Origin: a virus
UHGV virus genome: UHGV-0351052
DNA length: 64,000 bases
Reading direction: 5' to 3' (one strand)
A model generated the notes under the pieces. That model saw only the letters and a list, made by a program, of their open reading frames with translations. It ran no database searches and was not told the origin of the DNA. Position numbers and translations under genes: made by a program. Shown here in pieces: positions 10,518-56,589 of the stretch (its first letter is position 1; each line of letters starts with the position of its first letter).

Positions 10518-12574
10518 TACATTTTGAACTTTTTAGACATTCCATTGATGTTAACCAAAGAAGCTAAGATTTGAGAAACTTCATTTTCCTCTTCTTTTGA
10601 TTCTTCTACAAGGAATTGATTAAATCCAGCCATTGGACGAACTTCACCAGTTTCCATTAGATGGTCGCCATCATATACTGATTCTTCTAATTGTTCAGAA
10701 GGAGGAACGATTGTACCTTCGATTAGATACTTGTTATAAGCAGTTTCTTTCATAAAGTACGTACTTACTTTATTAATCTTCAGTAAAATTCCACGCGGTA
10801 GAATAACTTCAGCTTCTGATGGAAATCCTGATAAATGACCTGGAACGATAACTTTGATTCGCTCAGCTCCTTTAATTACCATACCCACGCTAGTTTCAGC
10901 ATCTTCATTAGCATATGTAGAATGACTACCCATATGCATCAAATCTTCTGCATCAACAGAACCTTCTCCTTCGCCAGAAAATACTGCACCGGAATCATCT
11001 AGAGCCATATAGTTTTTACCATGCTCACCGAAGATATTTGGTTTAAGCGATGTGGATACGAAGTTCTTGAAATAGAACATTTTGTTTTCAATGTTATGAC
11101 GCAAAGTTTTAAAGGTAACTTCTTGTCCACGATAAAGCGTAGTTCCTGGAGGAAGAACTGAACCTTTAGCGAATGCAGAATCCAACGTCTCGATGTGCTT
11201 AATGGCACGTTCCATATATTCTTCACGGGTAGAATCTGGTTTACCCAAGAGGAACGAGTTCATTTCAACATATGAATCTGCACAATAATCTTCAATTACA
11301 TCAGACTCAGCCTGAGTCAGTCCTTTTGGAGTTACTTCGGTGCTTGCGTATTCATATGCCTGAGCAGCAGATTCATTAATCAATTTATAAATGCCATTCA
11401 TGACAAATTGAATAATAGCTACCTTTTCGTCTGGTGTGGCTTTAGAACCTTTAACTAAATCATTGATAATTTTCTTAATAACATCAAAGCTATTAGAAAT
11501 ATTAATGTCAGCGAGATCGCTTAAAATTTTATCGGTTTTATAATCAAAGAATTCTTTATTCTTTAAATATTCTTGAGAACCTTGATGTGTTATATCGCTC
11601 TGCAGCCTGATAGACGGATCACGTAAACGCGCATGGGCCAATGCAATATGATTTCGGAAGCTTTCTAGTTCATAATCGTTAGATTTAAAACGAGAGGCAC
11701 TTCTCATACCACCGATAGCTCCTTTGCCGAAGTTTGAACCAATCTGGATAACGCCAGAATTCATTGGTCCTTCTGCTTTATATACCGGAACTTTAGATTC
11801 AAACTCTTGATATTTCTTGGCAGCGAAGCTATCACCCTGAAGTGAAGCATCGACAGTAGAATATTGAGCTTGTGCTGCTAATCGACGACTAATTTTAGTT
11901 TTCTGAATAACCGCTTGGTCAGTACGTTTATCATTTTCTAAAGCAATAGAAGCAGCAACAGCGACAGCTTTAGGAACAGCATTACCTGTTTTAACGTCTA
12001 CATAAACATCACCGACCTTCGATTCAACTTTTGTGAATAACTCAGTTGAAATAGGAGGTACACCTGGAATGTCTTCTAAATTGGCATTTTTACGGTAAAC
12101 CATAATATATGCATACTTTTTATCATAGTCCCAGATTTCCTTTAAAAGAACATAACGACCTGCTCCTTTAGTACGTACTAAACGGTCAGCAATAACTTGC
12201 ATTTGACGAGCAGCTCCATTTGTTTTACTTTTTAGTACGCGGAATAAGCATGCGTCAATTTTATACTGTTTCATTGTTTGAAGAGCAGTATCAAAAACCG
12301 CATTAATGACACCAATTGGATTTCCACCCAAGTTTTTAAGTTTAACTAATGATAGTTTCTCATTAACACCTATCATTACGATATGCATCATTTTATCGCC
12401 TGGCTTAACGTTTTTATTTGTATCACCGCCAGAGGTGTATGTACAAAATCTAAATCCAGGAAGCACGCTTTCTTCACCGGCTTGAATAGCAAAAATTTGA
12501 GGTATTTTATGCTTAGGATTTAAGTTAACAACCGGCGCCGAAGCGCCGTCAAATAATTCTGTAATAAGTTCCAT
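10517..12574 (-). CDS. Alt-like ADP-ribosyltransferase paralog (685 aa)
   Basis: N-terminus MELITELFD and first ~230 aa similar to adjacent Alt; ART motifs R (TTLYRGQ), STS (FVSTSL), ExE (EAEVILPRG); divergent central region. Confidence 0.85.
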   Translation of the reverse strand: MELITELFDGASAPVVNLNPKHKIPQIFAIQAGEESVLPGFRFCTYTSGGDTNKNVKPGDKMMHIVMIGVNEKLSLVKLKNLGGNPIGVINAVFDTALQTMKQYKIDACLFRVLKSKTNGAARQMQVIADRLVRTKGAGRYVLLKEIWDYDKKYAYIMVYRKNANLEDIPGVPPISTELFTKVESKVGDVYVDVKTGNAVPKAVAVAASIALENDKRTDQAVIQKTKISRRLAAQAQYSTVDASLQGDSFAAKKYQEFESKVPVYKAEGPMNSGVIQIGSNFGKGAIGGMRSASRFKSNDYELESFRNHIALAHARLRDPSIRLQSDITHQGSQEYLKNKEFFDYKTDKILSDLADINISNSFDVIKKIINDLVKGSKATPDEKVAIIQFVMNGIYKLINESAAQAYEYASTEVTPKGLTQAESDVIEDYCADSYVEMNSFLLGKPDSTREEYMERAIKHIETLDSAFAKGSVLPPGTTLYRGQEVTFKTLRHNIENKMFYFKNFVSTSLKPNIFGEHGKNYMALDDSGAVFSGEGEGSVDAEDLMHMGSHSTYANEDAETSVGMVIKGAERIKVIVPGHLSGFPSEAEVILPRGILLKINKVSTYFMKETAYNKYLIEGTIVPPSEQLEESVYDGDHLMETGEVRPMAGFNQFLVEESKEEENEVSQILASLVNINGMSKKFKM

Positions 12575-19381: not shown

Positions 19382-19459
19382 TTTATTCTCCTTTGTTTGT
19401 GTAAGATAATACTATCACAAAGGAACCATACTGTAAACAACTTTGTGCAATCTTTGGAA

Positions 19460-19487
19460 AATAAAAAAGGACTCCCGAAGGAGTCCT
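19460..19487 (-). terminator. rho-independent terminator (minus strand)
   Basis: AGGACTCC-CGAA-GGAGTCCT hairpin followed on minus strand by TTTTTTATTTT. Confidence 0.55.
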
Positions 19488-19491
19488 CAAC

Positions 19492-22162: not shown

Positions 22163-22395
22163 AGTACGCCATACACCCTTTGTGCTTCAACTAATCCATC
22201 AAAATCCAATTTGAGATGTGTTATTTGATCGCCATCACCTGGATTCACAATTACTAATACTGAACGAGAAGTTTCGGTAATAACACGAACCGATGTTTCA
22301 GGAAATCGTTCAGAAACCTTATTTACCAATTCCTGAGCAAATAGTTTAACTTTTTCTTGGAATTCTTTAACAGTAATTGGTTTTTCGCTTAGCAT
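22159..22395 (-). CDS. hypothetical protein (78 aa)
   Basis: ORF. Confidence 0.55.
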   Translation of the reverse strand: MLSEKPITVKEFQEKVKLFAQELVNKVSERFPETSVRVITETSRSVLVIVNPGDGDQITHLKLDFDGLVEAQRVYGVL

Positions 22396-22559
22396 GTTGA
22401 TCCTAGCTCCTTACTTTCAACATTTTTAACTAATTTGACAGAAACTAATTCAGCATCTTGAGTAATCATTACCGGACCTTCTTCATACTCTTCAAGATAT
22501 TCTAGAGCTTTCTTTTTAGCTTCTTCCTTCGTATCAGTTTGAGCATAGATATAAAACAT
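22389..22559 (-). CDS. hypothetical protein (56 aa)
   Basis: hand-translated ORF MFYIYAQTDTKEE... filling gap between track ORFs; below track size cut-off. Confidence 0.4.
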   Translation of the reverse strand: MFYIYAQTDTKEEAKKKALEYLEEYEEGPVMITQDAELVSVKLVKNVESKELGSTC

Positions 22560-22576
22560 ACAACCAGTAATACCTA

Positions 22577-22918
22577 CTACTTTCCACTTAATTTCTTTAT
22601 CAGTTTTAATTTCAAATTTACTGACAGAATCATCTTTTTGAACTTCTTCGAAAAAAGAATATATTCTAACATATAAGCAATTGAAAATAACGGGCTATCT
22701 TTATAGGATTCGCCCATTACATCAATAGCTTTATACCAGCAGTCATCAATTTCGCGTTTAATGCTAATAACATTTTTCGCAGGATCTATTTTTACTTTAA
22801 ATGAATTTTCCCCAATAAACTGGGTGATTCGTTTATTAGCCCCGCAAGTTTCATTAAAAATATCTTTATATCCAGTTTTAAAGCGATAAACCTTATCTTC
22901 TTCAAACCATTCGCTCAT
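22577..22918 (-). CDS. hypothetical protein (113 aa)
   Basis: ORF preceded by early promoter-like motif. Confidence 0.6.
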   Translation of the reverse strand: MSEWFEEDKVYRFKTGYKDIFNETCGANKRITQFIGENSFKVKIDPAKNVISIKREIDDCWYKAIDVMGESYKDSPLFSIAYMLEYILFSKKFKKMILSVNLKLKLIKKLSGK

Positions 22919-28668: not shown

Positions 28669-29344
28669 ACGCAAAAGATACATAAAAACGAATAGCTTCT
28701 AAGGCATTAATAACGTGCAAACAGAGGTAAAGAGATTTCATTAAAGCACGTTTAGCTTCGGCTTCTTGTTTAATAGCTCGGTTTAAACGAAAGACAGCAT
28801 CAGGAGATTCTTTAGCTAGTTCTACAAATTCTTTAGCATTTTCCCATTCACGGGTTTTAATCAGAACATCATCATAATAGCGTCCAATAGATTCGGCTCG
28901 TTTCATGATTGCTTCATCTAATACAATCTCATCAAATACCTTTGACGGATCAGTATAAAGATTTCGCATGATATGTGTATATGAACGGCTGTGAATAGTT
29001 TCACTAAAAGTCCACGTAGCAACCCATGTATCAAGGCTTGGGTCTGAAATTAATGACATAAGTACAGCAGACGGCGCACGACCCTGAATGCTATCCAAAA
29101 GTGATTGATACTTCAGATTATTAGTAAAAATATTTTGCTGATACTGAGGAAGCTTATTAAACTGTGCAGCATCCATCATTAAGTTTACTTCTTCGGGACG
29201 CCAGAAAAAACTGATCTGTCGCTCAATGAGTTCTTCAAATACTCGATGTCGTTGAATATCATATCGAGCTAAACCTAATCCAGAACCAAAGAACATCGGT
29301 TCATTCAAAACATCAACTGGATTTGTATTAAAAACTGTGCTCAT
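28669..29344 (-). CDS. nrdB: ribonucleotide reductase small subunit NrdB, exon 1
   Basis: 225-codon frame ending ...AIRFYVSFA followed by in-frame stop at intron start. Confidence 0.85.
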
Positions 29345-32989: not shown

Positions 32990-33435
32990 CATTATGTTCA
33001 GATAAGGTCGTTAATCTTACCCCGGAATTATATCCAGCTGCATGTCACCATGCAGATCAGACTATATCTCCAACTTGTTAAAGCAAGTTGTCTATCGTTT
33101 CGAGTCACTTGACCCTACTCCCCAAAGGGATAGTCGTTAGGCATTTATGTAGAACCAATTCCATTTATCAGATTTTACACGATAAGTAACTAATCCAGAC
33201 GAAATTTTAAAATGCCTCTTCCATCTCTTTTCAAAATCTTTAGCACTTCCTACATATACTTTATTGTTTAAAGTATTTTTAATCTGATAAATTCCGCTTT
33301 TCATAAATACCTCTTTAAATATAGAAGTATTTATGAAAGGGCAGTCCTACAATTTAGCACGGGATTGTCTACTAGAGAGGTTCCCCGTTTAGATAGATTA
33401 CAAGTATAAGTCACCTTATACTCAGGCCTCAATTA
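32990..33435 (-). mobile_element. group I self-splicing intron in td (446 nt) with deleted endonuclease ORF
   Basis: exon 1 ends ...VDVFLG before in-frame TAA; intron 5' TAATTGAGGCCTGAGTATAAGGTG and 3' ...ATG match T4 td intron as recalled; 446 = 1016 - 570. Confidence 0.85.
33137..33304 (-). pseudogene. I-TevI remnant (55 codons; in-frame internal deletion)
   Basis: hand translation MKSGIYQIKNTLNNKVYVGSAKDFEKRWKRHFK|ISSGLVTYRVKSDKWNWFYINA: I-TevI N-terminal 33 aa fused to C-terminal 22 aa at an RHFK repeat. Confidence 0.75.
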
Positions 33436-35810: not shown

Positions 35811-36038
35811 TTATTGTTCAATCAGTCCCATGTAAAATTCTGCGTCTTCAGAATCCATGCCATCACAATATTCATTAGCCATAAAGCGGGTAAGGTCTTC
35901 AAGAGGACCTTCAATAACGATTTGAATACTCCAAAACTTAGAATCTTGCACGCTTGTGATACTAAGTTCAGGATAACGATTACGAATAATCTCTTCAATA
36001 TATTCAAAATCAACGATGTCAATATCAACTTTAGCCAT
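35811..36038 (-). CDS. hypothetical protein (75 aa)
   Basis: ATG 36038 with GAGAGGAAA SD; track ORF start lies upstream of the promoter, so the shorter form is used. Confidence 0.5.
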
Positions 36039-36081
36039 ATTATTTTCCTCTCTAATCATCAGCAGTATTGCCGATAGTTGT

Positions 36082-36111
36082 ATAGTACCATGGAAGAACA
36101 AGGATGTAAAC
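36082..36111 (-). promoter_or_regulatory. sigma70-type early promoter (-35 GTTTACA, 17 bp, -10 TACTAT)
   Basis: member of repeated promoter family with shared leader ACAACTATC. Confidence 0.5.
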
Positions 36112-36120
36112 AGTTTTGTG

Positions 36121-36161
36121 AAAAAATTTTTGAAATAAAAAAGGGGACCTCTAGGGTCCCC
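36121..36161 (-). terminator. rho-independent terminator downstream of gene 32
   Basis: GGGGACC-loop-GGTCCCC hairpin followed on minus strand by TTTTTTATTTC. Confidence 0.6.
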
Positions 36162-36183: not shown

Positions 36184-37092
36184 TTAAAGGTCATTCAAAA
36201 GGTCATCCAGGTCCGTGTCATCAGCACTAGATGAACTGCCAGAGCTTGAGCTCATAAAATCATCTTCAGTTTTTGTTTTGAAGTCATCAACATTGAATGC
36301 ATCCAAATCATCAGCAACTTTATCAGCTTTCTTAGCAGCAGTCGCTGCGGCACCACCCATAGCAGCAGTTCCCATAACTTGACTGAACTTAGTGCTCAGT
36401 TCTTCAAATGATTTGAATTTATCTTTAGAAGTCATTTCAGAAAGGTCAACCATTTGTTCGAACAGTTCTTTCTGGAAAGATTCATCATCAATGTTTGGAA
36501 TCGCAGATTGATTCAGGAATTTAGATTCATCGTAGTTACTAAATCCAGAAACCTGTTTAACTTTCAGTACAAAGTTAGCACCTTCCCACGGACAAGTTAC
36601 ATCAACCGGAGTTTCACCCATTTCAACATCAACTGCAATCATTGCATTGATTTTATCCCAGATTTTCTTACCGAAACGATATTTAAATACTTTACCTTCG
36701 TTTTCTGGAGCAGCTGGGTCTTTTACTACAAGAATGTTAGCCCAATAAGAAGTTTTACGTTTAACAAGACTGTACTCTTTATTGTCAGTGTTGTACAGAT
36801 CATTTTTACTGATGTACTGACATACTGGACAAGAATCGTAATCACCGTGGGTAGATGAACAGTTTTCAATATACCATTTACCATTTTTCTTGAAGCCGTG
36901 ATTTACAAGAATTGCGAATGGTGCTTGTTCATCATTTTTAGACGGAAGAAAACGAATTACTGCTTGACCGTTACCCGCATTATCGAGTTTCAGTTTCCAC
37001 TCGCCTTTATCTTCAGAAGAAAAACCACCTTTATTTCCAGCCAGTTTAGCCATTTGTGCAGCGAGTTCAGCAGTAGATTTACGTTTAAACAT
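36184..37092 (-). CDS. 32: gp32 single-stranded DNA-binding protein
   Basis: 302 aa; matches T4 gp32 incl. acidic C-terminal tail. Confidence 0.97.
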
Positions 37093-44529: not shown

Positions 44530-45180
44530 ATGGCTGATTTAAAAGTAGGTTCAACTGTAGGTGGATCTGTCATTTGGCATCAAGGAAATTTTCCGTTGAA
44601 TTCAGCCGGTGACGATGTACTCTACAAATCATTTAAAATATATTCAGAATATAATAAACCACAGGCATCTGATAATGATTTCGTTTCTAAATCTACTGGT
44701 GGTACTTACACTGGTCCAATTACTATTAATTACGGGGTAAATAGTTATCTTCAATTAAGTAATAATGAAACCCCAATTCGAATTCGTTCCGGTGGCGGTA
44801 CCGGTAATACTCTTGTAATTGGCGGCTCTTCTGGCGGTATTAGTTTTAGACCTGCGGGTAGTGAAATCACTACTGGACAAATTACTATTACGCCAGAAGG
44901 TTTGACAACATTTACTAGGGCTGTAACGGCTCCATCTGTAACTGTTACATCTACTCCTTCCGCAGCATCAGATGCTACTCGTAAAGATTATGTTGATGGA
45001 GCAATAAATACTGTTACAGCAAATGCAAACTCTAGGGTATTACGCTCTGGAGACACTATGACAGGAAATTTAACTGCGCCAAACCTTTTTTCACAGAATC
45101 CTGCATCTCAACCTTCACACGTTCCACGATTTGACCAAATCGTAATTAAGGATTCTGTTCAAGATTTCGGCTATTATTAA
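44530..45180 (+). CDS. 36: long tail fibre distal connector gp36
   Basis: 216 aa; synteny. Confidence 0.85.
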
Positions 45181-45188
45181 GAGGACTT

Positions 45189-48100
45189 ATGGCTACTTTA
45201 AAACAAATACAATTTAAAAGAAGCAAAACTGCAGGTCAACTTCCTGCTGCTTCAGTATTAGCCGAAGGTGAATTGGCTATTAATTTAAAAGATAAAACAA
45301 TTTTCACAAAAGATGACTCAGGCAATGTTATAGAATTAGGTTTAAAATATGGAGGAACAATTGATGGTTCTTTAACTGTTAATGGAAATATAATTGGAAA
45401 TTTAACAGGTAACGCTGCAACTGCAACGAAATTAAAAACAGCACGAAAAATTAATGGTATATCCTTTGATGGGTCAAAGGATATCACGCTAACTCCATCT
45501 GACATAAATGTCAATAGCACAACATTTATAAAAAATAATGGCGAATTACCTGTTGATGCTAATTTAGATGAGTATGGGCCTGTTGAAGAATATCTTGGAG
45601 TTTGGTCGAAAGCAACTTCAACCAACGCTCAACCAGCAAATAAATTTCCAGAACAAAATGCTGTAGGTGTGCTAGAAGTATTTGTGGCCGGTCAATTTGC
45701 TGGTACTCAGAGATATACAACTAGATACGGAAATGTTTATATTCGTTCCTTGACTGCTACATGGAACGGAGTAAATGGTCCGTGGAGTGTGTGGCGAAAT
45801 ATTCAATCCGGTACTCGTTCACTGTCAACAACAATTGATCTTAATGATCTAGGAGGCGCTGAACACTTGGGTTTGTGGCGAAATAGTTCAAATTCCATTG
45901 CTACCTTTGACAGAAATTTCCCAGAAGAAGGATCGTCAGCTCAAGGACTTTTAGAAGTATATGAAGGTGGAAACTATTCTCGCACACAGAGATATACGAC
46001 CAGATTTGGTGTTGTTTATACTCGCTGTCTTACTGCTGCGTGGGATGCTTCTGCGCCTAAATGGGGACCGTGGCAACAAGTCGGTAATGTCACACCAGCG
46101 ACTTTTTATGATGGAGATCTGAATGATTTTAAAACTCCTGGGTTATATAATATTTTAGGCACTGATGCCGTTATTAACTGTCCTACAGGTGAAGGTTTGC
46201 CGACTGTTATTGTTGGTTTGCTGGAAGTTAAACAGCGTGCTTCTGGCGGTGCTATTTTCCAAAAATTTACTACTGCCGGAACGGGTTCAACTACTCGCGA
46301 TCGTATTTTTGAGCGCGCATATACCGGCGGTGTTTGGGGTACATGGAACGAAGTATACACATCCTATTCTCTACCAATTACTTTGGGTATGGGCGGTATT
46401 AAATCTAACTTAGCTGAGTTAGACTGGCAAACCTTTGATTTTGTCCCTGGTAGTATGTTTAGTGTTCCTTTGAACAAAATAAAGAATATGCCAGCAAATA
46501 TGGATTGGGGTACGATTGACGGAAACTTGGTTATGTTTTCTGTCGGTCCTAGCGAACACACTAGCACAGGGCGTACTGTTCAGGTTTGGCGTGGTACTGT
46601 ATCCCAGACAAACTACCGTTATTTTGTCGTTCGTGTGTTCGGTAATTCTGGAAATAGAACTTGTACAGTTCGACGCGTTGTTCTTGAAGATGGTCGCCAC
46701 AAATGGACAGCGCAACAAGATTTTAATGGTGCAGTTAACTTCGGTGCTCCTACCAATTTTAACTCTACTGTTAACCTTAATAACACTACCACATTTAAAA
46801 CAGAAGTTAAATTCCGCTCATTGAATGCATTTAAAATGTATGGTGGTAATTTTGGTACAATTTTCCGTAATGATGGTGAAAGTCTTTATATTCTTTCCAC
46901 CAACGAAAATGATCAAGATGGAAACTTTAACACCAATAGACCTTTCCGGTATCAGTTTAGAACTGGTGATGTTACTTTGGGTGGAACTAGTGGTGCTAAT
47001 ATTTTAAGATTAAAAAGTAGTTCTCTTGCTGCTACCTTTGGTGGTGATGTTAACTTAAGTAAAGGTACATTGACGTTTGAGGCGGGTGGTAAGCAATCAC
47101 GAGATTACTTCCGGTTTAACCATTGGGGTGATAGCAATAACGCTCGTGATAACATTATTCAGTTAGAAGACAGCAAAGGCGCTCATTTTTCCACTGAACG
47201 TACTTTAGCGACAGGTGCAATTAAAACTCGTTTCTTTGGCGAAACATTCACTGATGGTACATTATACCTAAATCAGATGAATAATAGCTCTGAACGATTC
47301 TCTATCAACAATTGGGGAAATTCAGAAGCTGGACGCGCGGCAGTATTGGAAGTCGGCGATTCCAAAGGTTATCACTTCTATACGGAACGCAGGACAGATA
47401 ACAGTTTGATGTTTGATGTTGCTGGCGCTTTTACTGTGCATGGACCTTCCGGGATTACTATCAAAAACTCAGCTGGCGCACGCCATATCTGGTTTAGAGA
47501 TGATAGCGATGCAGAAAAGGCTGTTATCTGGGCTACAGATGATGGTCTTTTACATATACGAAATAATAATGGGGGTTCATTTAGTCATCACTTCCAGGGT
47601 GCAATGATTAAAGTGGGAGAGCGTGTTCCTTATGCCGGAGATCGAGGGCTTATTCGCGGTGAAGTTTCTGGTGGTGCTTATGTGGATTGGAGAGGCCGCC
47701 CTGCTGGTTTGTTGCTTGACTGTCAACAAAGCGTTAATAGTGCTCATGCTATTTGGAAAGCGGTTGATTGGGGGCGTAACTACATCGCTGCTCTGGACGT
47801 TCATTGTCCCGGCGATAGTAATAATACTGCAGCAGCGGTTCTCCATGTTCAGTCTGCTGATTATCAATTCCATGCAAATGGGAGCTTTGATGCCAGTGGC
47901 AACGGAAACTTTAACGATGTTTATATTCGATCAGACCGTCGCCTTAAAGACAATATAGAAGATTATACCGGAAATGCGTTAAGTTTGATTGGTAAACTGA
48001 AAGTGAAAACTTACGATAAAGTTAAATCTCTTAAGGACCGTGAAATTATCGGTCATGAGATCGGCATTATCGCACAGGATTTACAAGAAATATTACCAGA

Positions 48101-48284
48101 AGCGATTAATATTTCGAAAATTGGCAATCTTGATAAACCAGACGAAGTTCTGACAATTTCTAACTCTGCTGTGAATGCTCTTTTAATTAAGGCCATTCAG
48201 GAAATGAGTGAAGAAATTAAAGAATTGAAAACGCCTTTCTTCACTAAAATTGCTCGCAAAATTGGTAAATATTTTAAATTCTAA
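45189..48284 (+). CDS. 37: long tail fibre distal subunit gp37 with C-terminal intramolecular-chaperone-like domain
   Basis: 1031 aa; C-terminal ~110 aa (..[13 protein letters not shown]..) resembles autocleaving IMC domains. Confidence 0.95.
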
Positions 48285-48288
48285 CAAC

Positions 48289-48308
48289 AAGGGGGAAATT
48301 TCCCCCTT
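48289..48308 (+). other. perfect 20-bp palindrome AAGGGGGAAATTTCCCCCTT between genes 37 and 38
   Basis: hairpin-forming palindrome; short T-tract only. Confidence 0.4.
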
Positions 48309-48321
48309 TGGAGTATAAATT

Positions 48322-49104
48322 ATGGCAGTAGTTGGAGTTCCTGGCTGGATTGGAAGTTCAGCCGTAAATGAAACGGGACAGCGCTGGATGAGTCAAGCGG
48401 CTGGTCAACTAAGATTGGGTGTTCCTTGCTGGATGAGTCAATTTTCAGGTCGCTCGCGAGAAATTATTCATACACTTGGCGCAGACCATAACTTCAATGG
48501 TCAATGGTTCCGTGATAGATGCTTTGAGGCGGGTAGTACACCTATAGTGTTTAATATTACAGGTGATTTAGTATCATATTCTAAAGATGTTCCTTTATTC
48601 TTCATGTACGGGGATACACCTAATGAATATGTTCAGTTAAATATACACGGCGTAACGATGTATGGTCGTGGTGGTAATGGCGGTAGCAATGGTCCTGGCT
48701 CATCTGGTGGTCATTGTATTCAAAATGATATTGGTGGAAGACTAAGAATTAATAATGGAGGTGCTATCGCAGGCGGTGGCGGTGGTGGCGGTGGTGGGTA
48801 TTATTCTCCCACGAAACCAATGAAATTAACCTTTGGTGGTGGTGGCGGTCGTCCGTTTGGTGCTGCTGGTGGATCTGCCAACATGCAATCAGGCGCAACT
48901 GCTGGTACTCTTTATGCGCCTGGCGCAGGGTCTGTAAACGGTGTCTATAGCGGCGGTGGCGGTGGTGAGGTAGGCGCCGCAGGAGGTAGATGCAATATTC
49001 GCGGTCAAGGATCTGAATATAATGGCGGCGCTGCTGGTTATGCTGTCATAGGGTCCGCTCCAACATGGCAAAATGTTGGAGCAATATATGGTCCAAGAGT
49101 ATAA
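48322..49104 (+). CDS. 38: T2-type gp38 receptor-binding adhesin with glycine-rich motifs
   Basis: 260 aa; conserved N-terminus [15 protein letters not shown]; poly-Gly tracts GGGGGGGGG separating variable segments. Confidence 0.85.
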
Positions 49105-49134
49105 TTTGAATAAATATCCTTAAAAGGAGGGTCT

Positions 49135-51898: not shown

Positions 51899-52534
51899 TC
51901 ACAGTTCAGACGCTACGGTGATTACTGCTTCAATGTTTTCTGCCGAGCGTTTAATGTCAAGATACACATTACCGTTTTTAGCGATTTTACATGACATTCC
52001 GATGTCAGTAAATTTCTGAATATGATGTTCCATCATTTTGTATCCAAAAATTCGCATATTTCCATTGTTGTTAATTTCAAAATTGCGAATTCCGTGAGTG
52101 CGTTTTTCTAAAATAGCAAGATAGTTACTACGATAAGTTTCAACCTTTTTAAGAACAAATCCATTTTCATCTAAAAGTTTTAACATGAAGTCTTTATCTT
52201 CTTCCATATCGGAAGTAATCTCGCGAGCTTTACGAGTTGCTCGTTTTTTCAGCAGTTCCGGAGCATTTTCCTGTGCGTATAAAGTTGCTGCATTTGAAAT
52301 AATATCCTGAGCTTCACCAGTAATGATTAATCCATCACCAGATTTCTCCACCAGGCCTTTTTTAATCAATACCCCAATATTACTATTAACTACTGCATTA
52401 CCTAAATCTGGATGCACCTCACGAACTTCTGCAGCTGTAATGAAATCTTTCTTAGCAATAGTAATTAAAATCGCAGCAGTTTTTTCGTTCAGAACATCGT
52501 TAGAAGCTTTGATGATGTAAGTTACTTTAGACAT
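51899..52534 (-). CDS. motA: MotA middle-transcription activator
   Basis: 211 aa; matches T4 MotA as recalled. Confidence 0.95.
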   Translation of the reverse strand: MSKVTYIIKASNDVLNEKTAAILITIAKKDFITAAEVREVHPDLGNAVVNSNIGVLIKKGLVEKSGDGLIITGEAQDIISNAATLYAQENAPELLKKRATRKAREITSDMEEDKDFMLKLLDENGFVLKKVETYRSNYLAILEKRTHGIRNFEINNNGNMRIFGYKMMEHHIQKFTDIGMSCKIAKNGNVYLDIKRSAENIEAVITVASEL

Positions 52535-52575
52535 TTTCTAATCTCCGTAATTCTGTATCAGTAGTTGATAGTTGT

Positions 52576-52605
52576 ATAGTACCACAGTATGCTTTGGTTG
52601 TAAAC
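52576..52605 (-). promoter_or_regulatory. sigma70-type early promoter upstream of motA (-35 GTTTACA, 17 bp, -10 TACTAT)
   Basis: repeated promoter family; shared leader ACAACTATCAAC. Confidence 0.55.
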
Positions 52606-52626
52606 CGTTTTGTGAAAAAATTTTGA

Positions 52627-52656
52627 AATAAAAAAGGGAGAGCCTCGGCTCTCCCT
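52627..52656 (-). terminator. rho-independent terminator (minus strand)
   Basis: GGGAGAGCC-TCG-GGCTCTCCC hairpin followed on minus strand by TTTTTTATTTC. Confidence 0.55.
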
Positions 52657-52660
52657 AAAA

Positions 52661-52864
52661 TTACTTCTCGATCGCGATAACTATCGTGATAATACGTTGA
52701 ATTCCGAACGCAAGAAGACCTCCTGCTACGGCTGAAACAACACCTAAACCCGCCAGTAAAATGCCACCAGATACTAATGCAGCGCTTGTAATACCTATGA
52801 ATGGACTCATTTGATTTCCTCTAAATCTTTGGTGTATTCTGTAACTACACCAGTAGTTTTCCAA
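52661..52864 (-). CDS. small membrane protein (Gly/Ala-rich TM segment)
   Basis: track ORF starts at TTG; likely true start is internal ATG (MSPFIGITSAAL...) overlapping gene 52 stop. Confidence 0.45.
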   Translation of the reverse strand: MENYWCSYRIHQRFRGNQMSPFIGITSAALVSGGILLAGLGVVSAVAGGLLAFGIQRIITIVIAIEK

Positions 52865-55362: not shown

Positions 55363-55581
55363 TCATTTTACACCGTTCCAAATTGTTTCAACCACGGGTT
55401 TTAAACCATTTTGATGAATATCCATTCCGACTACTGCCATCAAATAGATTCCAACTACAACTGAACCTAAGGCAAAAATCAGCATGAAAATGAATAAAGC
55501 CGGAAAAATATTATCGAAAAACCATTCAATAAATGTAAAAGCACTGCGTTTACGCTTCATATTTTCCTCACATAAATCCAA
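55363..55581 (-). CDS. small membrane protein
   Basis: track ORF from TTG; probable ATG start at 55560; two predicted TM helices. Confidence 0.45.
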   Translation of the reverse strand: MDLCEENMKRKRSAFTFIEWFFDNIFPALFIFMLIFALGSVVVGIYLMAVVGMDIHQNGLKPVVETIWNGVK

Positions 55582-55816
55582 AGTAAACGTTTAATACATC
55601 AATCATTAAAACGATTGGGAATATACTCAAAACTATTAGTATTATAACTACATTCCATATAGCTTTAACAATCTTTTTCATTTTCTGTTCCTCCGTAGTT
55701 GATAGTTGTATAGTACCACAGAAGAACAGTCTTGTAAACAACTTTTTTAAAAATATTCGTAATAAATGTGAATACCAACTACTACCGCTGAAACCTGTGC
55801 AACCCACCACGCACAA
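55568..55816 (-). CDS. small membrane protein (true start probably internal MKKIVK)
   Basis: track ORF spans an early promoter, so only the distal ~37 codons are likely translated. Confidence 0.35.
   Translation of the reverse strand: MCVVGCTGFSGSSWYSHLLRIFLKKLFTRLFFCGTIQLSTTEEQKMKKIVKAIWNVVIILIVLSIFPIVLMIDVLNVYFGFM
55710..55739 (-). promoter_or_regulatory. sigma70-type early promoter (-35 GTTTACA, 17 bp, -10 TACTAT)
   Basis: repeated promoter family. Confidence 0.5.
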
Positions 55817-55985
55817 GCAATAAGTACAGAATTCAAAATTTTCATAATAACCTCATCACAAAAGTAAATGTTAAACAAATTACTGGAATACTAATTAACC
55901 AAACAAAACACCACCATAATGAACTCATAGCTCAATCTCAGCGATTTTCATTTTATTCTCCAAATCCGTATCAGTTGATAGTTGT

Positions 55986-56015
55986 ATAGTACCACGGTCC
56001 TTGTGGTATGTAAAC
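55986..56015 (-). promoter_or_regulatory. sigma70-type early promoter (-35 GTTTACA, 17 bp, -10 TACTAT)
   Basis: repeated promoter family, immediately downstream of denB. Confidence 0.5.
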
Positions 56016-56031: not shown

Positions 56032-56589
56032 TTAAATGGAAAGATACCATCCGTTGTAGTTGCTTTTTCTTACAACCTTACGAAGGTCTTCTCTGTCACC
56101 GATGAACTTCGGAGTGTACTGGATGACACCTGGATGAATTTCTTTAGTGTTGAATATAATTATACAGTCAGCGACCTGATGATTCAGAATGGGTCCTAGA
56201 TTTATTCCAGAACCATATGGATACTCTCCGCTGCATCCTGTTGTTACAGAAATCCAACGTGAGTCAGTTTGATGTGTCTTAACTTCTACACGAAGCCCGC
56301 AGTATTTTGGATGTGCTAAAACATCCCATGCATACGTGTACGGATCATCGACATCTTCTTGACCTTTGTTAACATAGCCGCTCAACCAATCTGCTACAAA
56401 AAACTCTGCGTACACCGCGATACGGCATCTTTCGATAACTTCTGCTTTATCCTGGTTCGGGTTTTGTTTTAAAGAGTATCTTGCTGTATCAGCAATTTTG
56501 ACCTTCATTTCACTAGTTAAGTCACTGTTCGATAGGGTAAATGTCGGAATCTGAAATAGTCTCTGTAAACCCGGATTCGTTTTCTGCAT
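56032..56589 (-). CDS. denB: endonuclease IV
   Basis: 185 aa; position between ndd and rIIB as in T4. Confidence 0.8.
   Translation of the reverse strand: MQKTNPGLQRLFQIPTFTLSNSDLTSEMKVKIADTARYSLKQNPNQDKAEVIERCRIAVYAEFFVADWLSGYVNKGQEDVDDPYTYAWDVLAHPKYCGLRVEVKTHQTDSRWISVTTGCSGEYPYGSGINLGPILNHQVADCIIIFNTKEIHPGVIQYTPKFIGDREDLRKVVRKSNYNGWYLSI

Follow-up and report, generated by a model that had tools for sequence, protein, structure and literature searches.

The 64,000-nt viral sequence analysed here (UHGV-0351052, referred to as the window) carries a GC-rich hairpin and, just beyond it, a promoter-like sequence downstream of gene 32 (36061-36161), and nearly the same arrangement recurs upstream of motA (52561-52656). 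The locus raises the question of what these widely separated modules are and why they are so alike. The original prediction was that they belong to a dispersed family of near-identical early promoters that could also serve as recombination substrates. The feature is real, was correctly read and has already been published, in part as the T4 early promoters (Hinton 2010) and in part as PeSLs (Comeau, Arbiol & Krisch 2014). The window is assigned to Tequatrovirus, at ~96-97% identity to T4-like phages. Its gene 32 region is ~97% identical to phages such as Geo and HY03, and across most long collinear blocks it is 92-97% identical to T4. An Rfam scan of the whole 64-kb window gave no family at its gathering score, in keeping with the window's lack of the group I introns found in T4 td and nrdB. 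The four sites described below are very probably immediate-early promoters of a T4-type phage, two of them coupled to terminators, and their copies are related by descent and exchange.

The early promoters of T4 have reportedly been catalogued by Liebig and Rueger in 1989, Wilkens and Rueger in 1996 and Miller et al. in 2003, and observations on the internal-protein (IP) locus are said to have been made by Repoila in 1994. T4 early promoters have been described as 'uber' UP/-35/TGn/-10 promoters with additional consensus regions; they are stimulated further by Alt, and are modulated by Alt/ModA ADP-ribosylation of alpha Arg265 (PMC2988021, Hinton 2010). PeSLs were defined in RB49 and phi1 as promoter plus stem-loop cassettes with promoter and terminator activity, and mini-circles were described (PMC2839356, Arbiol et al. 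2010). The PeSLs of T4 and PST have the form TTTACW-N17-TAYWAT with a stem-loop just upstream and lie near indels (PMC4122927, Comeau, Arbiol & Krisch 2014). The ndd.4/.5 exchange, a worked example in that paper (Fig. 6A), took place at the locus of two of the promoters studied here, those at 55.7 and 56.0 kb.

Four copies of an early promoter core

A motif search of the window with GTTTACA-N17-TACTATACAACTATC found four copies with 0 mismatches, all on the minus strand, at 36111-36073, 52605-52567, 55739-55701 and 56015-55977; 100 dinucleotide-preserving shuffles gave 0. The 17-mer GGTACTATACAACTATC is likewise present in four exact copies, with 0.11 expected, and the window holds no further copies with ≤3 mismatches. 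The last two sites had originally been listed as promoters sharing -35, -10 and leader with the first two, and as exact composite matches they belong with them. A multiple alignment of the four copies has two invariant blocks, GTTTACA and TGGTACTATACAACTATC; the 17-nt spacers differ, and the leaders diverge beyond about +6. A TG precedes the -10 in all four sites (at -15/-14), and the combination of TTTACA, 17 bp and TACTAT with this TG is read as an extended -10 sigma-70 promoter of optimal spacing.

The frd.3 promoter core (36082..36111) consists of the -35 GTTTACA at 36111-36105, TGG at 36090-36088 and the -10 TACTAT at 36087-36082. Upstream is gene 32 (ORF 36184-37092, ending at 36184), and downstream is frd.3 (35811-36038, ATG at 36038), the translation of which is identical to T4 Frd.3 at 75/75 residues; we take frd.3 to be the gene with which the transcription unit of the predicted 36-kb promoter opens. 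The coding strand for this part of the window is the minus strand, and all promoter and terminator elements there lie on it too. The motA promoter core (52576..52605), also on the minus strand, has GTTTACA, 17 bp ending in TGG, and TACTAT, and precedes motA (51899-52534, minus), the ORF of which encodes MotA. The ndd.4 promoter (55701..55739, predicted start 55703) reads GTTTACA-N17-TACTAT-ACAACTATC, and lies between the 3' end of ndd.5 and the ndd.4 homologue (55568-55681, minus). The ndd.6 promoter (55977..56015, predicted start 55979) is 276 bp from the ndd.4 promoter, and the stop codon of denB (ORF 56032-56589, minus) falls within its UP region. A Shine-Dalgarno sequence and an ATG are found 28-43 nt past the -10 at all four sites. 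At 56.0 kb this ATG opens only an 8-codon remnant ORF (MKIAEIEL, 55925-55951, minus) directly after the promoter leader, and ndd.6 itself (55842-55928, minus) starts ~57 nt past the -10.

Start positions were placed by the usual 7-nt distance to the -10. The predicted start is the A in CT-A-TCAA, and ACAACT would be the discriminator (-6 to -1). At 36 kb the segment 36039..36081 comprises the putative discriminator ACAACT (36081-36076), the predicted start A (36075), the 5' leader and the Shine-Dalgarno sequence GAGAGGA; the corresponding motA segment (52535..52575) has its discriminator, a predicted start A at 52569, the motA leader and the Shine-Dalgarno sequence GGAG. With ACAACT as discriminator, of the 'shared leader' ACAACTATCAAC only ATCAAC..., roughly its final 6 nt, is predicted to be transcribed. 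The claim that this leader is shared holds for its core but not in full at 36 kb, where the leader is ACAACTATCGGC and ends in GGC rather than in ...CAAC/AAC. Shine-Dalgarno sequences of the form GGAG are present at motA and ndd.4, and it is at GGAG that the RegB nuclease of T4 cleaves early mRNAs (PMC3014915).

Terminators and UP elements

Reading along the minus strand from 36161 to 36036, the order of elements is the hairpin, TTTTTTATTT, CAAAAATTTTTTCACAAAACT, GTTTACA, the 17-nt spacer (..TGG), TACTAT and ACAACTATCGGC...GAGAGGAAAATAATATG; from 52656 to 52532 the order is as at 36 kb, with a different hairpin. The original description of both places as a GC hairpin followed by GTTTACA, 17 bp and TACTAT was thus accurate in coordinates and in elements. 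The 36-kb hairpin, GGGGACC-CTAGA-GGTCCCC (GGGGACCCTAGAGGTCCCC, 36143..36161), begins 22 nt past the gene 32 stop codon, and its T-run TTTTTTATTT (36133..36142) abuts the UP element, so that hairpin and T-run together span 36161-36133. The 52-kb hairpin AGGGAGAGCCGAGGCTCTCCCT, with arms and loop AGGGAGAGC-CGAG-GCTCTCCCT (52635..52656), begins 5 nt past the stop codon of the motA.1 homologue (which ends at 52661, minus), and with its T-run TTTTTATTT spans 52656-52626. RNA folding gave -14.3 kcal/mol (z = -2.0) for the 36-kb hairpin and -23.7 kcal/mol (z = -5.7) for the 52-kb hairpin. A terminator scan listed both for the minus strand alone; read from the plus strand, the hairpins have no T-run, and the scan does not list them. 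In sequence, both hairpins with their T-runs have what is expected of Rho-independent terminators, and activity is predicted for both. In T4 the gene 32 terminator has the same hairpin as at 36 kb. That terminator is reportedly a classical working one, used in the Omega interposon of Prentki and Krisch in 1984.

The UP element at 36 kb, AAAAATTTTTTCACAAAACT (36112..36131, minus), matches AAAWWTWTTTTNNNAAA-N3 directly before GTTTAC with 0 mismatches. The consensus AAAWWTWTTTTNNNAAA itself is reportedly that of Estrem et al. from 1998. At 52 kb the T-run TTTTTATTT is followed by the UP element CAAAATTTTTTCACAAAACG (together 52606..52634, minus), with 1 mismatch to consensus. The window thus has 2 matches to the UP consensus, with 0.08 expected, and no other sites within two mismatches. 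It had been claimed that the A/T-rich string is the same in both modules; the string is common to both, but between 36 kb and 52 kb there are a 1-nt indel and one substitution. A C/T polymorphism, ATTT(C/T)AAAA, is found in the UP regions of the frd.3 and motA modules (window 36112-36142 and 52606-52634). T4 has T at both modules, the window has C at both, and other phages are mixed. A variant common to the two modules hints at exchange between these two as well; recurrent mutation is a possible source too, and it could formally account for shared variants of a single nucleotide.

No terminator hairpin accompanies the promoters at 55.7 and 56.0 kb (fold z = -1.1 and -0.5, respectively), and in place of a full UP consensus they have only partial A/T tracts. 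The partial tracts are explained by the coding sequence upstream: denB ends within the UP region of the 56.0-kb promoter and ndd.5 within that of the 55.7-kb promoter, so there is no terminator and little upstream similarity there. Given the lack of a stem-loop, these two are plain early promoters and not full PeSLs.

A third composite of terminator and early promoter is located at 19409..19488 (minus), where the hairpin GAGGACTCC-TTCG-GGAGTCCTT is followed by a T-run, 28 nt, and GTTTAC-N18-TAGTAT. This composite belongs to a different sequence subfamily, has a CUUCGG-loop hairpin, and has its T4 orthologue at 130310. The distance from hairpin end to -35 is 29-31 nt at 36 and 52 kb, and a distance of 28-31 nt is found for 3 of the 13 window promoters and for 4 of the 6 hairpin-bearing promoters among the 40 of T4. 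A T-run and one UP element together fill this distance. The whole module, from hairpin through T-run and UP element to core, occupies ~90 bp at a fixed spacing.

The early promoter family in the window and in T4

The original prediction had named a genome-wide motif search as its check. The class was scanned for as GTTTAC-N17/18-TA...T, allowing ≤1 mismatch to TACTAT or TATAAT, with second-order Markov simulations as the null. The T4 genome, pieced together from four parts for the scan, gave 40 sites, all of them on the minus strand (0 on the plus strand), against ~1.9 expected, so the motif is enriched on the early-gene strand; 37 of the 40 have a Shine-Dalgarno sequence and an ORF start downstream. 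The 13 sites in the window were likewise all on the minus strand, with 0 on the plus strand. A consensus built from 38 T4 sites, aaaa..ttt.a.aaA.t.GTTTACat...tgTGgTAttATa...ctatcaa, is graded in its conservation, and since it includes ctatcaa, the 'shared leader' is a subfamily version of a start-region motif found throughout the class.

The four window promoters have T4 orthologues at 146875 (frd.3), 163673 (motA), 166807 (ndd.4) and 167086 (ndd.6), and the T4 motA promoter at 163673 is identical to the window's in spacer and leader. In architecture, in strand and in orthology to T4 promoters, the sites bear out the dispersed family of near-identical early promoters that had been proposed. 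The strict subfamily (TGG TACTAT ACAACTATC) is found in T4 at 167086, 163673, 146875, 70696, 55384, 53943 and 27080. The T4 paralogue at 55384 is annotated in GenBank U76612 as the terminator, -35 and -10 of 'early promoter 54.4'. At the frd.3 and motA sites a promoter annotation is missing from the T4 genome record and from the other records examined, only the nrdC.10 paralogue being annotated; 'Pe144.6' (PMC6024815) is probably the frd.3 promoter, by the old map offset.

A second subfamily was also seen, as a 54-nt exact repeat GTTTACAAGTCCCTCGTGTTGTGTTATAGTAGTCTTACTGACATAACATGAGGA at 25953-25900 and 10517-10464 (both minus, 15 kb apart). This repeat spans the -35 through the Shine-Dalgarno sequence, and its T4 orthologues, which lie before alc (136336) and before alt.-3 (123093), share an exact tract of 39 nt. 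In addition, a perfect spacer/leader inverted repeat of 7-14 nt, with the -10 in the loop, occurs in 12 of the 40 T4 promoters and in 3 of the 13 window promoters (22978, 19438 and 19046); mismatched spacer/leader pairs, used as a control, reach 7 nt in only 1.3%. These repeats resemble the PeSL classes with a stem-loop around the -10. The four focal promoters are without them, their longest spacer/leader stem being 3-4 nt.

Relation to known promoters and cassettes

All four sites are like T4 early promoters in having the -35 GTTTAC, 17 bp, TGn, the -10 TAyWAT and a conserved start region; strand and downstream genes are the same, each site lying on the early-gene strand upstream of a Shine-Dalgarno sequence and a prereplicative gene start. 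The UP element of the T4 class (about -40 to -60) is present as the full consensus at 36 and 52 kb and in part at 55.7 and 56.0 kb. Differences from T4 are allelic only, namely the window frd.3 spacer, ACAAC vs TACCC at ndd.4, an indel of 3 nt (ACT) in the leader of ndd.6 and one nucleotide in the A-tract of the UP element. As in rrnB P1, T7 A1 and lambda PL, the UP region has an A-tract/T-tract distal and an AAA proximal subsite for contact by the alpha C-terminal domain. Unlike the E. coli UP promoters, the phage promoters combine all four elements.

The modules share with PeSLs an intergenic stem-loop terminator, an AT-rich region, a sigma-70-type early promoter, a Shine-Dalgarno sequence and an ATG, with ORF indels nearby. 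The TTTACW-N17-TAYWAT motif is there, with the Shine-Dalgarno sequence and ATG at its 3' end, and ORF insertions are found among close relatives; the stem-loop is present at 36, 52 and 19.4 kb but not at 55.7 and 56.0 kb. They depart from published PeSLs in that the 36-kb and 52-kb modules lie beside core genes (32 and motA) and not in the most plastic regions, and in that mini-circles were shown for RB49 and phi1 only. Lambdoid 'morons' and integron gene cassettes offer a looser parallel, as small accessory genes that travel between resident genes with their own promoter and/or terminator. In the T4-like phages, unlike morons and integrons, the regulatory sequences supply the homology for exchange, and there is no integrase or attC-type site.

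Patch exchange between paralogous promoters

Between pairs of T4 promoters, the background of spacer identity is 3-9 of 17, and the 36-kb and 52-kb spacers, at 7/17, are at this background. Some non-orthologous pairs are nevertheless identical at 17/17 or 18/18, and the leaders of some paralogues are identical over 30-43 nt. The orthologue survey was done with INPHARED phage records; a scan of IMG/VR for the gene 32 terminator plus T-run yielded one locus. A spacer like ATCCTTGTyCTTCCrTGG is present in seven phages (the window, SHFML-26, T2, ACG-C40, PYps32T, SG1 and Sf24), and the window's spacer is 18/18 identical to that of the T4 e.8 promoter at 70696. In T4 alone the frd.3 spacer is AAGCATAAAGCTTTATGG, 18/18 identical to the spacer of the nrdC.10 promoter, and AAGCATAAAGCTTTATGG is native at nrdC.10 in T4, T6, R5505 and SG1. 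Because of this identity T4 has a 58-nt exact repeat, the copies of which are 91 kb apart. Only T4 and its nearest relatives have the T4-type frd.3 region, which 14 of 507 records match at ≥99% identity.

The ndd.4 promoter differs in a similar way at -6 to -2, where the window alone has ACAAC and T4 and six relatives have TACCC, TACTC or TATCC. The window version has four changes packed into 5 nt, the sequence on either side being nearly identical, and it matches the paralogues. The frd.3 and ndd.4 patches support a reading as signatures of short-patch exchange between dispersed copies. The suggestion that the repeats could serve as recombination substrates has this patchwise exchange between paralogues in its favour, along with cassette polymorphisms, and has been published for T4 and PST (PMC4122927). 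The exact tracts common to the four window copies are only 18-27 nt, which is short for T4 homologous recombination. Further, a crossover between the 36-kb and 52-kb modules would delete essential genes, so that only conversion-type or inter-phage exchange is plausible there.

Origin of the near-identity

In the reading we prefer, unmodified host sigma-70 RNA polymerase would read the four promoters in the first seconds of infection, recognizing the combination of GTTTACA, a 17-bp spacer ending in TGn, TACTAT and the initiation region CT-A(+1)-TCAA, with a full consensus UP element available to the alpha C-terminal domains at the 36-kb and 52-kb sites. At these two sites the upstream intrinsic terminator would end the preceding transcripts, those of gene 32 and of gene 52 to motA.1, and the next unit (frd.3-frd-td or motA) would start from its own strong promoter. 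Near-identity would then have two causes. Selection for maximal polymerase binding would hold the consensus positions, and common descent with continuing recombination or gene conversion would produce the identical non-consensus spacers and leaders and the mosaic among orthologues. The same homology would let small cassettes of an ORF plus its promoter move in and out, as in the published PeSL model. Early promoters of this type would allow T4 to capture host RNA polymerase within seconds, pairing with a terminator would insulate transcription units, and the repeated promoter sequence would provide built-in crossover points for swapping small accessory genes in T4-like genomes.

It is very unlikely that the copies are alike solely by independent evolution towards the best polymerase-binding sequence, with no exchange. 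Convergence of this kind would fit the alignment, where invariance coincides exactly with the functional elements (-35, TGn, -10 and start region), as well as the background-level identity of the 36-kb and 52-kb spacers and the grading of the family consensus, which selection predicts. It does not account for unconstrained spacers that are fully identical between non-orthologous promoters against the background of 3-9 of 17, for orthologous promoters that differ by whole patches matching a paralogue, or for the 30-43-nt identity of paralogue leaders. Nor is there much to suggest that the sites are middle (MotA/AsiA-dependent) or late (gp55) promoters, the probability of which we regard as negligible. 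Many T4 prereplicative genes do have middle promoters in addition, and about one middle promoter in two carries TGn (PMC2988021), but GTTTACA occupies the -35 here in place of a MotA box (TGCTT, centred on -30), TACTAT occupies the -10 in place of the late TATAAATA, and motA must be expressed before MotA exists, motA mRNA being present 1 min after T4 infection (PMC9697503).

The remaining alternative concerns mechanism, and holds that the modules are actively mobile, the hairpin or core being targeted by a dedicated site- or structure-specific recombinase or nuclease. Active mobility was raised by the authors of the PeSL work, who found mini-circles in RB49 and phi1 (PMC2839356), and cassette junctions do recur at the ...CTATCAA start region. 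Set against this, the hairpin stems are wholly different (GGGGACC, GGGAGAGCC and GGACTCC), so that they offer no obvious shared site for a protein; a hairpin is missing from two of the four copies; and no recombinase is associated with the modules. General recombination in T4 is very active, moreover, and the patches are bounded by identity, as homologous conversion predicts. We consider dedicated mobility highly improbable, and favour exchange by homology on a background of common descent.

A broader form of the exchange reading is that T-even early promoters evolve in concert, through frequent, gene-free, short-patch gene conversion between paralogues tens of kb apart. This is conceivable, but we hold it only tentatively and are inclined to doubt it; the evidence compatible with it (the frd.3 spacer, the ndd.4 ACAAC and the C/T variants of the UP regions) comes from ~8 genomes. 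Taken furthest, the idea would make a structure-specific nuclease that acts on the hairpins or the start region the driver, in place of chance homology. If concerted conversion were true, promoter strength and responsiveness to Alt/ModA would be reshuffled as a set. The published PeSL work deals with cassette movement and not with gene-free patch conversion. The modest addition made here is one clear and datable case in which a patch was converted between paralogous promoters; ~500 Tequatrovirus genomes are available for a wider survey. A reading from the letters of the DNA had in this instance recovered a real regulatory class.

Cassettes, indels and synteny breaks

Cassette polymorphisms were found at two terminator-promoter modules. 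In ACG-C40 (L009 17834-18180) and PYps32T (L010 16932-17278) motA is separated from the motA.1 terminator-promoter module by an additional 75-codon ORF that has an early promoter of its own, with 23-nt direct repeats CTATCAAATAAATGAACTGAAAC, one in each of the two leaders, on either side of it. This ORF is absent from the motA module of the window, T4, T2, SG1, Sf24 and SHFML-26. In SG1 and R5505 there are one or two extra ORFs and a second promoter between the nrdC.11 terminator-promoter module and nrdC.10, with the upstream junction of the cassette just past ...ACAACTATCAA. A two-promoter arrangement similar to that before motA was noticed in Mosigvirus G53 (L013 17633 and 17954).

Of ~12 synteny breaks between the window and T4, 3 touch an early promoter, a proportion that is suggestive only; several other breaks are differences in homing endonucleases or introns (segG, mobE and I-TevI). 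A promoter-bounded cassette downstream of the ndd.6 promoter was considered and rejected, the difference being an in-frame deletion of ~237 bp between two ATGAAA microhomologies. This deletion, which left the 8-codon remnant, is common to the window and T4, and the full 264-nt ORF (~87 codons) is present in SHFML-26, Sf24 and others. The window is without mobE/nrdB.1, the I-TevI region of td, and segG (breaks at 29344/29400, 33202-33217 and 37170/37206), and at 44708-49110 its distal tail-fibre region (genes 36-38) is divergent from T4. Compared with T4 it also has a 1.7-kb insert at 10537-12226 that holds an alt-like paralogue, beside the 10.5-kb promoter, and a 0.5-kb insert at 22395-22915 that begins ~27 nt into the leader of the 22978 promoter.
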